A stretch of DNA of 38,660 nt from Candidatus Omnitrophota bacterium (GTDB lineage: Bacteria > Omnitrophota > 4484-213), in assembly GCA_003645805.1 (NCBI GenBank), contig QNCL01000003.1, forward strand, positions 1 through 38,660. The letters are read 5' to 3'. Shown here one piece after another: positions 34,335-38,438 of this stretch. The translations under genes and the position numbers were made by a program. How positions within the stretch are numbered: the stretch's first letter is position 1; each line of letters starts with the position of its first letter. The notes beneath the pieces are model-generated. The model worked only from the letters and a program-made list of their open reading frames with translations. It was not told the origin of the DNA and did not search any database.

Positions 34335-36254
34335 ATGAGCAAGGTAATCGGAATTGACTTGGGAACTACAAATTCCTGTGTAGCAATCTTAGAAGGAGGT
34401 AAGCCGGTGGTGATTCCTAATGCTGAAGGTTCGCGCACTACTCCTTCTGTAGTTGCTTTTACCAAAACAGGAGAGATATTGGTTGGACAGGTAGCAAAGA
34501 GACAGGCAATTACCAACTCAGAGAATACCATCTTCTCTATCAAGAGATTTATGGGACGAAGGCATAATGAGGTGGAGGAAGAAGAGAAACTTGTACCTTA
34601 TAAGGTGATAGCAGATAGCAAAGGTAATGTAAAGGTAAAGGTGCGAGAGAAGGAGTATACTCCTCCTCAAATTTCCGCTTTTATCCTGCAGAAGATGAAG
34701 GAAACCGCAGAGAACTATTTAGGAGAGAAGGTAAAACGAGCGGTGATTACTGTTCCTGCTTATTTTAATGATAGCCAGCGTCAAGCAACCAAGGATGCAG
34801 GAGAGATTGCCGGATTGGAGGTGTTAAGGATTATCAATGAGCCTACGGCTGCTTCTTTAGCCTACGGACTGGATAAGAAGAGAAACGAGAAGATAGCAGT
34901 CTTTGATTTAGGAGGAGGAACATTTGATATCTCTATCCTTGAGATTGGAGAGGGAGTTTTTGAGGTAAAAGCCACCAATGGAGATACGCACTTAGGAGGA
35001 GATAATTTTGACCAACGGATTATCGATTGGTTAGCCGAGGAGTTTAAGAAGCAAGAGGGAATAGACTTGAGAGAAGATAGGATGGCTTTGCAAAGGTTGA
35101 AAGAGGCAGCAGAAAAGGCAAAGTGTGAACTTTCCACTACTCTTCAGACCGAGATAAATCTTCCTTTTATCACTGCAGATAGCAGTGGACCCAAGCATTT
35201 AAGCGTTACTCTGACTCGAGCAAAACTGGAACAGTTGGTTGCCGACCTAATTGAGAGAACCGTAGAACCTTGCAAGCAGGCGTTAACTGATGCCGGGCTT
35301 TCTGCTGAGGATATTGATGAGGTTGTTTTGGTAGGAGGGCAGACAAGGATGCCCGCAGTGCAGGAATTGGTAAAGAGACTATTCCATAAAGAACCACACA
35401 AAGGAGTTAACCCTGACGAGGTGGTTGCCGTAGGAGCAGCAATTCAGGGAGGAGTGCTTGCAGGAGATGCGGGAGTAAAGGATGTACTCTTGCTTGATGT
35501 TACCCCTCTTTCCTTAGGAATAGAGACATTAGGAGGAGTATTTACTAAACTGATAGAGAGGAATACCACCATTCCCACCAGAAAGACTCAGATATTTTCT
35601 ACTGCTGCTGATAATCAAACTGCGGTGTCTATCCATGTTCTGCAGGGAGAAAGACCGATGGCTGCAGATAATCGCACCTTGGGCAGGTTTGATTTGGTAG
35701 GTATTCCTCCTGCTCCGCGTGGGGTTCCTCAGATTGAGGTATGTTTTGATATTGATGCTAATGGAATTCTCCATGTTTCCGCAAAGGACTTGGGGACAGG
35801 CAAAGAGCAGAAGATAAGAATAGAGTCCTCCAGCGGGTTATCCAAAGAGGAAATAGAAAGAATGAAGAAGGAGGCAGAGGCACACGCAAAGGAGGACGAG
35901 AAGAAGAAAGAACTCATTGAGGCAAGGAACCGGTTAGATAGTCTTATTTACTCTGCGGAGAAGTCTCTGAAGGAAGCAGGAGATAAACTCTCTCCACAGG
36001 AGAGGGAAAGAGTGGAGAAGGCTATCAAAAAAGGAAAGGAGGAGTTTAATAGTGATGACATCAACAGGATAAATAAAGCGATAGAGGAGATTACTCAAGC
36101 CTCGCATAAATTAGCCGAGGAGTTATATAAGAAAACTACTACTCAGCAGTCTACCCAGACAGGAAGTAAGCAAAGCGGAGGAGAAAAAAAGGATAATGTG
36201 GTAGATGCAGAGGTGGTAGATGAGGAGAAAGATAAAGGGGGTGATAAGAAATGA
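34335..36254 (+). CDS. dnaK: Chaperone DnaK
   Basis: [31 protein letters not shown] and [11 protein letters not shown] motifs. Confidence 0.99.
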
Positions 36255-36775
36255 GAAGGCGGGAGGAGGTGCAGGAAGAGAGATTTTTAGATATTACTGC
36301 CAATATGGAAGGAAATCTTTCTTTTAATGATCCAGTAAACTTGCGAATTAGTGGAAGGTTTGAAGGGACTCTGGATACAAAAGGAAAATTGGTTATTGGA
36401 GAAAAAGCAGAGGTTAAGGCAGAGATTGAGGGAGAGGAGATTATTGTAGGAGGAAAGATAGAAGGAGATGTGAAGGCGAGTAAAAAGATAGAGATTCTTT
36501 CCACAGGGCAGATTAAAGGTGATGTGCAGACCCCTGTATTCTGCATTCGCGAGGGAGGAATCCTGCAAGGTAGGTGTCAAATGCTCTTTGATTTCTCTGA
36601 GAAGGAGATGATGGGACTGAGAGAGGTAGCAGAGTATCTGGAGTTGGATCCAAAGGTGGTAGAAAAATGGGCAGAGAGCAAGAGAATTCCAGGAGTGAAG
36701 AAGGGTAGTGAATGGGTGTTTGAGAAGGAAGAGATAGATAAGTGGGTAAGCAGGGAGAGAGCAGGGGAGATATAG
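36251..36775 (+). CDS. Bactofilin (polymer-forming cytoskeletal) domain fused to C-terminal excisionase/BldC-like HTH_17
   Basis: Beta-helix repeats [49 protein letters not shown]; then LREVAEYL..W..RIPGVKxGxxWVF..EIDKW. Confidence 0.88.
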
Positions 36776-36788
36776 AGATAGAAGCAAG

Positions 36789-37100
36789 ATGTCAAAAGGA
36801 TTGTTAAGCTTTCATCAGGCTTTAGAGTATTTAGGAGTAAACAGAGGAGAGTTGAAGAAACTAATTAAGGAAAAGAGAATCACTCCTTATAAGATAGGAG
36901 GAACTTATTTGAGGTTCAAGAGAGAGGACCTTGAGAATTTAAGGAGTCATTTAGAGAGAAAAGCAAAAAAAGCGCATTGGTTAACACAAAAGGAAGAACC
37001 TGTGTTAATAGAAAGGATAGTTGATTTCTGGTATTTCAATGATTTATATATCCTCTCTACCCTAATTATCCTTTTTTTATTGTTTATAATCTTTAGATAA
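36789..37100 (+). CDS. Excisionase/BldC-like HTH_17 protein with C-terminal transmembrane helix
   Basis: LLSFHQALEYLGV..ITPYKIGGTYLRFKREDLE; tail DFWYFNDLYILSTLIILFLLFIIFR. Confidence 0.85.
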   Translation: MSKGLLSFHQALEYLGVNRGELKKLIKEKRITPYKIGGTYLRFKREDLENLRSHLERKAKKAHWLTQKEEPVLIERIVDFWYFNDLYILSTLIILFLLFIIFR

Positions 37101-37122: not shown

Positions 37123-37197
37123 GGGGCTGTGGCGCAGAGGAAGCGCATCTGGCTGGCAGCCAGGAGGTCGTGGGTTCAAATCCCACCAGCTCCACCA
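37123..37197 (+). tRNA. tRNA-Ala(GGC)
   Basis: Acceptor GGGGCTG/CAGCTCC with G3:U70, anticodon loop CTGGCAG, CCA. Confidence 0.96.
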
Positions 37198-37241: not shown

Positions 37242-37277
37242 AAAAAAAGAACCCCGCTAATTGCGGGATTCTTTTTT
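37242..37277. terminator. Bidirectional intrinsic terminator
   Basis: A7-GAAC-CCCGC-TAATT-GCGGG-ATTC-T6 between convergent transcription units. Confidence 0.85.
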
Positions 37278-37306: not shown

Positions 37307-37417
37307 TTACTTCTTCTTTTTCTTCTTCTTGGTGCTTTTTGTGCTTTTGCTACTCGTCTTCTTTGTGCTCTTCTTTGTGCTCTTCTTTGTGCTCTTTTTG
37401 GCTTTTTTCTTAGCCAT
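37307..37417 (-). CDS. 36-aa Lys/Ser/Thr-rich histone H1-like microprotein MAKKKAKKSTKKSTKKSTKKTSSKSTKSTKKKKKKK (not in ORF track)
   Basis: Strong SD GAGGAGGTGA, ATG at 37417, TAA at 37309-37307, upstream promoter and downstream terminator. Confidence 0.85.
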   Translation of the reverse strand: MAKKKAKKSTKKSTKKSTKKTSSKSTKSTKKKKKKK

Positions 37418-37982: not shown

Positions 37983-38438
37983 ATGCATTATGCCAAGTCT
38001 AAAAAGACAATCAAAGATTTACCAGAAGCAGAAAGACCAAGAGAGAAATTAATGCGCTATGGCCCAGAAAAACTTTCTAATTCCGAACTCTTGGCTATAC
38101 TCTTGCGCTCAGGAAAGAAAGGAGAGAAGGAATACTTTGTTATTTTCTATCTTGACTCCCGAAATCAGGAAATCAAAAGAGAAATCATCTCCATTGGCTC
38201 TCTTAACGCTAATTTAGTCCACCCACGAGAAGTCTTTGAGCCAGCAGTAAGAGATTTAGCCGCTCAAATAATCTTAGCCCACAATCACCCCTCAGGAGAC
38301 CCAGAACCATCAGAAGATGATCTAACAATCACTAAAAGATTAGTAGAGGCTGGTAAAATTATGGGGATAGAGGTGGTTGAGCATATTATTGTAGTAAGAA
38401 ATGGATTTTTAAGTTTTAAGGAGAAAAATTTAATTTAG
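37983..38438 (+). CDS. radC: RadC/UPF0758 JAB-domain protein lacking the central HhH region
   Basis: ERPREKL..LSNSELLAILL joined directly to KEYF..VHPREVF..AHNHPSGDPEPSEDD. Confidence 0.88.
   Translation: MHYAKSKKTIKDLPEAERPREKLMRYGPEKLSNSELLAILLRSGKKGEKEYFVIFYLDSRNQEIKREIISIGSLNANLVHPREVFEPAVRDLAAQIILAHNHPSGDPEPSEDDLTITKRLVEAGKIMGIEVVEHIIVVRNGFLSFKEKNLI

Follow-up and report, generated by a model that had tools for sequence, protein, structure and literature searches.

A bactofilin fusion gene and its winged-helix partner form a conserved pair

A contig of Candidatus Omnitrophota bacterium (QNCL01000003.1, positions 1 to 38,660; the window, hereafter, is this whole stretch of 38,660 nucleotides) carries two small adjacent genes whose products share a winged helix-turn-helix (HTH) domain. 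Gene 1 encodes a bactofilin beta-helix followed by a winged HTH, and gene 2 encodes a second winged HTH with a predicted C-terminal transmembrane helix (Table 1). An earlier reading of the sequence alone (the original prediction) had described this architecture, the overlap of the gene 1 start with the stop codon of the upstream dnaK and the spacing between the two genes; the open reading frame (ORF) coordinates agree, with the dnaK TGA and the gene 1 ATG overlapping as ATGA at 36251-36254 and 13 nucleotides (nt) separating gene 1 from gene 2.

The joint conservation of the two genes, on which that prediction depended, was found in nearly all of the related loci. We scanned one genome per prokaryote species, which gave 348 stretches with a relative, and kept 80 loci. 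The records of all 80 bear the title Omnitrophota or Omnitrophica, except that some third-party assemblies are labelled "uncultured Planctomycetia/Planctomycetales". A co-oriented gene 2-like ORF (phmmer E <1e-5) lay directly 3′ of gene 1 in 77 of the 80 loci, starting between -58 and +237 nt from the gene 1 stop (median gap 26 nt, ≤30 nt in 42 of the 77). As for the three misses, the contig of locus L028 stops 27 nt past gene 1, locus L059 has a gene 2-like frame with an in-frame stop at the contig end, and locus L083 contains an intact gene 2 frame by translation, missed by the start-codon rule and matching the profile at E 7.8e-26. No other neighbour was as constant as gene 2 in the 69 loci of the neighbour survey described below.

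The same picture was obtained at the level of the phylum. Within an even sample of 401 Omnitrophota genomes, 341 of them high-quality, the fusion profile matched 375 genomes (325 of the high-quality ones) and the gene 2 profile 376 (327), the latter always with a single match. The database search for gene 1 yielded 58 homologous proteins at E ≤0.001. Where their source names gave a taxon it was always Omnitrophota or Omnitrophica, except for one partial protein labelled Gerdarchaeota, and their annotations read only "hypothetical" or "polymer-forming cytoskeletal protein". Since 52 of these 58 homologues carry both Pfam domains, the two-domain architecture of gene 1 is more than a chance fusion. 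What the window contains is one representative of a single-copy gene pair that is near-universal in Omnitrophota, a real, strongly conserved and uncharacterised two-gene module. Orthologue counts out of 78 given hereafter refer to the rows of the gene 1 and gene 2 alignments.

Table 1. Positions of the gene pair, its domains and its flanking features in the window
Feature	Position	Strand	Basis
Gene 1, bactofilin-winged-helix fusion	36251..36775	+	ORF, 174 amino acids; Pfam Bactofilin and HTH_17; AlphaFold2
Gene 1 bactofilin beta-helix, residues 16-110	36296..36580	+	Pfam PF04519
Gene 1 C-terminal winged HTH, excisionase/BldC type, residues 121-169	36611..36757	+	Pfam HTH_17
Gene 2, predicted tail-anchored winged-helix membrane protein	36789..37100	+	ORF, 103 amino acids; Pfam HTH_17
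Gene 2 N-terminal winged HTH, residues 6-49	36804..36935	+	Pfam HTH_17
Gene 2 aromatic juxtamembrane motif, residues 79-87	37023..37049	+	Conservation in 78 orthologues
Gene 2 predicted C-terminal transmembrane helix, residues 85-102, one residue after	37041..37094	+	AlphaFold2, Kyte-Doolittle
dnaK, upstream, same orientation	34335..36254	+	Pfam HSP70, E 2.5e-276
tRNA-Ala(GGC), directly 3′ of gene 2	37123..37197	+	ARAGORN
Terminator-like hairpin (37253-37267) and T-run	37253..37277	+	Pattern scan

Gene 1 is predicted to encode a polymerising bactofilin

The Pfam hidden Markov model scan placed a Bactofilin match (PF04519, E 1.8e-25, 89.4 bits against a cut-off of 27.9) and an HTH_17 match (PF12728, E 3.3e-11, 43.7 bits against 27) one after the other in gene 1. 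The AlphaFold2 model, built on the 78-row alignment, reached a mean predicted local distance difference test (pLDDT) value of 88.7 and consisted of a beta-helix (residues 13-111), a low-confidence linker (residues ~112-119) and a winged helix (residues 120-170) with the order strand-helix-helix-strand-strand-helix. Both results bear out the earlier description of a full bactofilin beta-helix followed by an HTH_17 domain. When the model was compared to the PDB with Foldseek, the beta-helix matched BacA (2n3d; template modelling score TM(target) 0.85, root-mean-square deviation (rmsd) 1.6 over 103 columns) and TtBac (6rib/6ria; TM(target) 0.71-0.73), and the winged helix matched BldC (6ama/6amk; TM(target) 0.74-0.81, rmsd 1.3-1.4 over 49 columns) together with RacA (5i44), RdfS, Xis and the HTH domains of terminase small subunits. 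The E-values of these comparisons were weak (best 1.1e-3) because the query was a two-domain model.

Gene 1 is the sole bactofilin match in its own genome (869,646 bp, 96.8% complete). Its L105 aligns with F105 of TtBac, the polymerisation residue altered in the F105R mutant, and this column was hydrophobic in 78 of 78 orthologues (L in 37, F in 20, I in 17, M in 3 and V in 1). The first turn of the beta-helix (residues 13-35) was also unusually invariant. From the L105 column we infer a bactofilin that would be able to polymerise. The membrane-targeting peptide of bactofilins has the consensus M-F-S-K-K-K-K and requires a hydrophobic residue at position 2 (PMC12448750). Such a peptide was absent from gene 1 of the window, which begins with M-R-R-R-E-E-V-Q and lacks hydrophobic residues at positions 2-5. 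Other family members begin with sequences of the M-A-F-K-K-K or M-A-I-L-G-R-G-K types, which resemble the targeting peptide, and a crude rule found a targeting-like N-terminus in 24 of 48 database proteins.

The two winged helices are related and differ in charge

In order to compare both winged helices with a characterised relative, residues were mapped onto BldC by HMMER alignment, with residue roles taken from the BldC study (PMC5859096) and the transfer of numbering being our own. In that account Arg30 reads bases and its replacement (R30A) abolishes DNA binding, G44E abolishes binding as well, and Arg47/Arg48 form the basic wing. The winged helix fused to the bactofilin was acidic across the family, with a median net charge of -3 (range -6 to 0, n=78; -2 in the window); it was net acidic in 73 orthologues and positive in none, and its recognition helix had a net charge ≤0 in 77 of 78 (median -2). 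The Arg30 position was occupied by E (37), D (16), K (8) or R (1), that is, by an acidic residue in 53 of 78 orthologues, and by K in the window. Residues aligned to the BldC "head" patch (F21/V23/W31) were conserved, namely L130 in 78 of 78, V, I or L132 in 77 and W140 in 73. The wing position held R in 34 and K in 28 of the 78 fusions (median wing charge 0), and V in the window. The acidity of the fused domain and its lack of the usual recognition-helix Arg, both pointed out in the original prediction, are properties of the family, whereas the missing wing Arg, although correctly seen in the window, is a trait of a small clade. Because the fused helix is acidic across the family and lacks an equivalent of Arg30, a protein-docking role for it appears reasonable on these alignments.

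Gene 2 matched HTH_17 at E 8.2e-8 (32.8 bits against the cut-off of 27; PF12728), and the profile of its winged helix matched Xis (4j2n), RdfS (8dgl) and BldC (6amk/6ama) in the PDB. The structure model had a mean pLDDT of 70.5 and comprised the HTH (block pLDDT 60-73), a long third helix, a disordered stretch (residues 60-69) and a confident helix (residues 72-102) that included the terminal hydrophobic segment. The helix at residues 85-102, which ends one residue before the C-terminus, had block pLDDT values of 88-96, and the most hydrophobic stretch of 19 residues (Kyte-Doolittle) was C-terminal in 77 of 77 orthologues. The model thus agrees, together with Pfam, with the earlier description of a second HTH_17 and one C-terminal transmembrane helix, and we infer that gene 2 is probably tail-anchored in the inner membrane with its winged helix in the cytoplasm.

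The wing of gene 2 was positively charged in 77 of 78 orthologues (median +3) and R42 in it was invariant (78 of 78), extending to the whole family the wing Arg first noticed in the window. The whole HTH domain had a median charge of +1.5 (range -4 to +8; +5 in the window), and the recognition helix a net charge ≤0 in 70 of 78 (median -2), that of the window being +2. The position of BldC Arg30 was not conserved (D in 22, K in 19, R in 18 and E in 8 of 78; K in the window), and G38, aligned to G44 of the BldC "tail" patch, was present in 71 of 78. The linker between winged helix and motif was variable and net positive (median +2). The most conserved stretch of gene 2 was the aromatic motif that precedes the membrane helix, not the HTH. 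Its consensus was D-F-F-Y-F-N-D-F-Y, with D79, F80, Y82, F83, D85 and F86 each present in ≥90% of the 78 orthologues and Y87 invariant; the D-F-W-Y-F-N-D segment that had looked conserved in the window lies within it.

The two winged helices are detectable paralogues, with 13 of 51 residues identical (25%, E 2e-5), and they clustered together by BLAST. Both proteins matched the NCBIfam "excise" domain (33.0 and 33.1 bits, cut-off 28.8). Neither the BldC subfamily NF033787 (18.1 bits, cut-off 77) nor the MAD1 HTH of the MADS anti-phage system, NF047737 (49.4 bits for gene 1 and 19.4 for gene 2, cut-off 80), was reached in NCBIfam. The acidic fused domain and the basic gene 2 wing (medians of -3 and +3) are complementary in charge, and the net charges of the two HTH domains were not correlated across the 78 pairs (Spearman 0.19, p 0.10). 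These features fit two domains that would have drifted away from sequence-specific DNA reading while keeping the oligomerisation surface, and the partner of the basic gene 2 wing could be DNA or, alternatively, the acidic domain of the fusion. A complex prediction for full-length gene 1 with residues 1-78 of gene 2 (78-row alignments, run without controls) gave a score of 0.15, with the mark at 0.32, and counts neither way.

We also searched 1.84 billion representative proteins with the gene 2 profile, obtaining 315 matches at E ≤1e-10. A single-chain fusion of gene 1 and gene 2 (~280 amino acids) was not found, the full-length matches among the best 150 of the 315 being of 80-154 amino acids, and a word search for longer proteins with the aromatic tail of gene 2 gave no candidate; both negatives weigh little. 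Nine of the best 150 matches were long proteins (363-799 amino acids) with 5-8 matched stretches each (P0063, P0087, P0093, P0147, P0168, P0184, P0190, P0192 and P0210), and P0063, the best match overall, had 5 HTH_17 repeats in Pfam. These nine look like HTH_17 winged helices arranged in tandem, which would suggest that winged helices of this kind are used in head-to-tail arrays. The genome of the window has two more HTH_17 domains, at G000:C2:38017-38163 (in a 402-amino acid frame) and G000:C51:4981-5115 (in a 143-amino acid frame).

Gene 2 persists in lineages that lost gene 1

The genome tables of the fusion and of gene 2 were then compared by eye, taking matches at E <1e-50 as full-length fusions. 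All of the ~355 genomes with a full-length fusion in the 401-genome sample also had gene 2. Among the 25 genomes without gene 2, 19 had no fusion match at all and 6 had only weak or partial ones (1e-12 to 1e-26). The reverse situation, gene 2 without a full-length fusion, was found in ~21 sampled genomes. Assembly gaps may account for some of these cases, but in two groups the gene has really been lost. Three genomes that belong to genus g14 (L086-L088) show the order YibQ, TsaD, MgtC, gene 2 and the LarB-like gene, with gene 1 gone. In four genomes from several genera of family f15 (L090-L093), gene 2 comes directly after tsaD, whereas the order tsaD, gene 1, gene 2 is preserved in another member of this family, G034. 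No Bactofilin match of any kind was obtained in five gene 2-only genomes that are 97-100% complete. In the gene 2 proteins of these genomes, neither the winged helix nor the wing Arg nor the aromatic tail has been lost.

The fusion was lost at least twice, the membrane-anchored partner staying at the same chromosomal position, and it is gene 1 that depends on gene 2 and not the reverse. Because gene 2 persists where gene 1 and every bactofilin have been lost, it can work alone. Its winged helix is intact in the absence of a bactofilin and must therefore have some role independent of the filament.

A putative membrane scaffold and its alternatives

Altogether, the pair probably marks a membrane scaffold that has not been described before. 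In our preferred reading, which is tentative (probability of roughly 0.45), the core is gene 2, a membrane-anchored winged-helix protein, to which gene 1 contributes an accessory scaffold of bactofilin, attached via paired winged helices. Gene 2 would display an excisionase/BldC-type winged helix with a basic wing on the cytoplasmic face of the membrane and would have a function of its own, apart from the bactofilin. Gene 1 would add a polymerising bactofilin bearing the paralogous acidic winged helix on a short flexible linker, and the pairing of this winged helix with that of gene 2 would hold the filament to the membrane protein. The two might meet in a direct head-to-tail hetero-association, of the type that BldC and RdfS form between subunits, or both winged helices might be bound to the same stretch of nucleic acid. 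The outcome would be a multivalent scaffold at the membrane. Since gene 1 of the window has no bactofilin-type N-terminal membrane-targeting peptide, gene 2 would be the only membrane link of the fusion in this lineage. The original prediction that the pair links a filament to the membrane and/or the chromosome draws support from the conserved pairing and from the acidic fused helix, but the persistence of gene 2 without gene 1 goes partly against a simple adaptor.

Several observations speak against this scaffold. The relatives of gene 1 with a targeting-like N-terminus need no gene 2 anchor and yet retain gene 2. According to the BldC study, head-to-tail contacts arise only on DNA (PMC5859096). 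A mirror-tree analysis found no specific HTH-HTH co-evolution signal, as shared phylogeny dominates: distances correlated with r 0.70 between the gene 1 and gene 2 HTH domains and 0.76 between the bactofilin core and the gene 2 HTH, with partial r of 0.31 and 0.51, respectively. With R or K retained in the wing of 62 of 78 fusions and Arg42 invariant in gene 2, non-specific DNA contacts may be made through the wings. The winged helix of gene 2 is well conserved in lineages without gene 1 and therefore has a target other than the fusion; if that target were DNA, a DNA-membrane tether could be nearer the truth. In such a tether or nucleoid organiser, which we regard as somewhat unlikely, both winged helices would bind DNA with little sequence specificity, chiefly via their wings. 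Mixed BldC-like head-to-tail multimers may form, with gene 2 pinning the chromosome to the membrane and the bactofilin polymer adding DNA-binding heads, by analogy with RacA and DivIVA or BacNOP-PadC and ParB but with no separate adaptors. Both domains do belong to a DNA-binding fold family, with matches to Xis, RdfS, BldC and RacA; the wing and the linker of gene 2 are positively charged, the recognition helix and the whole domain of the window gene 2 (+2 and +5) are too, and the retention of the gene 2 winged helix without gene 1 is what would be expected if its ligand were DNA. The maintenance of the pair in an 870-kb genome would also fit a core role in cell biology. On the other hand, the recognition helices are neutral or acidic in nearly all fusions and in 70 of 78 gene 2 proteins, most fusions have an acidic residue in place of the base-reading Arg, a position that is unconserved in gene 2, the fused domain is positive in no orthologue, and the genome already has ParB. 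Taken with the residue patterns above, the evidence is more in favour of a scaffold at the membrane than of a DNA tether with sequence specificity.

A regulatory switch of the BacR type, in which one of the winged helices would be a transcription factor whose access to DNA is controlled by sequestration at the filament or membrane, so that the state of the envelope or cytoskeleton feeds back on gene expression, shares the gene logic of BacR, an HTH gene adjoining a bactofilin gene. We consider it improbable: neither protein matches DUF4004, gene 2 is permanently anchored and the other HTH permanently fused, with no evident release step, the recognition helices lack the usual base-reading residues, and the pair has no dedicated upstream promoter region, starting within the dnaK stop here and close behind MgtC or tsaD elsewhere. 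There is also a slim chance that the two proteins act independently and that their adjacency and shared fold are merely the trace of an old tandem HTH duplication, one copy of which was then fused to a bactofilin. The paralogy of the winged helices, the function of gene 2 without gene 1 in some lineages and the missing co-evolution signal would all agree with it, but the adjacency holds phylum-wide despite changing flanks (dnaK, MgtC or tsaD upstream; a tRNA, the LarB-like gene or another ORF downstream), the gaps are short or the genes overlap, and every sampled genome with a full-length fusion also has gene 2. Finally, the "excise" matches of both proteins and the sub-threshold antiphage_MADS1 match of gene 1 could be read as the remnant of a mobile element or defence system, with an excisionase or MADS1-like HTH. 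We rejected this very remote reading, which the conservation pattern effectively refutes: the pair is single copy and vertically inherited across the phylum amid housekeeping genes, no integrase, mobile or defence genes occur among its conserved neighbours, and the MADS1 and BldC subfamily scores fall far under their cut-offs.

As to what such an assembly would organise, the division genes of the phylum are of interest. In the genome of the window (96.8% complete), FtsZ_C, Tubulin and TIGR00065 had no match, the only FtsA-family match was MreB, and MreB and ParB were present. Tubulin (PF00091) matched none of 101 high-quality Omnitrophota genomes and 13 of 14 control genomes. A review of 2016 did not settle whether Omnitrophica have FtsZ (PMC5147048), and a 2025 paper reports that dcw genes are conserved in Omnitrophota (PMC12283558). 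It is conceivable, though we would not expect it, that the pair is a core part of an FtsZ-independent cell-organising apparatus, in which gene 2 would mark membrane sites and the bactofilin would polymerise there, linking the membrane with the chromosome or else with the site of division or growth. A cytoskeleton, a membrane anchor and a nucleic-acid-type adaptor would then be encoded by two small genes. Bactofilins are known as scaffolds that recruit their clients via separate adaptors or short peptides; here the filament subunit itself contains an adaptor-type fold, and a membrane protein contains the paralogue of that fold. Some nine in ten Omnitrophota genomes have the pair as a single copy, in a phylum whose members are very small, mostly uncultured and perhaps dependent on hosts. 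If the winged helices dock together, they would represent a new mode of membrane attachment for bactofilins and a DNA-binding fold re-used for protein assembly, and if they bind DNA, a minimal chromosome-membrane tether; either way, the pair would offer a first handle on the cell organisation of Omnitrophota.

Comparison with known systems

The literature searched contained no description of a bactofilin-HTH fusion or of Omnitrophota bactofilins, in keeping with the original prediction that knew of no characterised system of this design, although supplementary architecture surveys outside that search could list such a fusion. In terms of fold and Pfam family the winged helices resemble BldC, RdfS and Xis, and they keep the residues aligned to the head-to-tail interface of BldC; those proteins stand alone, are basic and use Arg30 together with a basic wing to read DNA (PMC5859096). 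By contrast, the Omnitrophota domains are attached to a polymer or a membrane, and their recognition helices are of neutral or acidic character. RacA (PDB 5i44) with DivIVA in B. subtilis offers a similar arrangement, in which a scaffold associated with the membrane is joined by a MerR-like winged helix. Unlike the Omnitrophota pair, RacA has a base-reading Arg and a coiled coil, and DivIVA is unrelated to bactofilin.

The closest precedent for a bactofilin that binds the product of an adjacent HTH gene is BacR with BacE and BacF, described in a 2026 study (PMC13649987). B. subtilis BacR (YhbD) is encoded beside the bactofilin genes, binds BacE/BacF and is held in membrane foci, which blocks its binding to DNA. 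The likeness lies in the small HTH gene that adjoins a bactofilin gene, as here in 77 of 80 loci. BacR is, however, a soluble, dimeric DUF4004 protein of Bacillota, whereas in the Omnitrophota pair one HTH is fused and the other predicted to be tail-anchored, both being of the excisionase/BldC type (HTH_17), and the range is Omnitrophota. Neither gene 1 nor gene 2 matched DUF4004 (PF13171) in Pfam at E up to 1. The BacNOP-PadC-ParB/ParA system of Myxococcus likewise links a bactofilin scaffold to DNA-bound complexes, but it does so via a separate adaptor, PadC, and ParB (PMC5703909), whereas the Omnitrophota fusion has a DNA-binding-type fold within the bactofilin and a membrane partner alongside. 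In bactofilins with transmembrane helices of their own, such as Proteus mirabilis CcmA, an integral membrane segment replaces or complements the N-terminal targeting peptide; these helices lie within the bactofilin chain (PMC12448750), and the Omnitrophota helix is on a separate partner that also exists without a bactofilin.

Genomic context of the pair

Neighbouring genes were surveyed in 69 of the 80 loci, the other 11 having been dropped when greedy gene calling lost gene 1 to an overlapping ORF, and one representative per cluster was named by Pfam. The most frequent neighbours were TsaD (58 of 69 loci), an S41 peptidase (51), MgtC (47), an AIR-carboxylase/LarB-like gene directly downstream (42), GatB (32), a YibQ-type deacetylase (24) and a type II/IV secretion ATPase (21). 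The dnaK gene, to which the original prediction had coupled the pair, lies 5′ of gene 1 in only 3 of the 80 loci, which are the closest relatives and have gaps of 111-271 nt. This adjacency is lineage-specific and outside the conserved unit, and the overlap with dnaK is a recent rearrangement within this family that implies no functional coupling, which we ruled out on these counts.

In the pattern scan the stretch from dnaK to gene 2 showed no convincing terminator-like site, and the first clear one after these genes and tRNA-Ala was the hairpin listed in Table 1; the three protein-coding genes are probably co-transcribed in the window. Of the 4 sequencing runs that contain this stretch, none was listed as RNA. 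A tRNA-Leu follows 3′ of tRNA-Ala and the hairpin. Two minus-strand ORFs that overlap the pair (36151-36546 and 36287-36787) were discarded as shadow frames, as the domain and conservation evidence was all on the plus strand. According to Pfam the wider surroundings are housekeeping genes, for orotidine monophosphate decarboxylase, dihydroxy-acid dehydratase, a heptosyltransferase, a PfkB kinase, a cytidylyltransferase, Hsp70 and RadC. Just 3′ of the terminator, a 12-nt C/T-rich tandem repeat occupies positions 37330-37400 (+) within overlapping small ORFs. Further downstream, a RadC-like JAB-domain ORF of 151 amino acids (37983-38438, +) matched the UPF0758 N-terminal profile over only 40 of its 77 positions and may be a shortened form.

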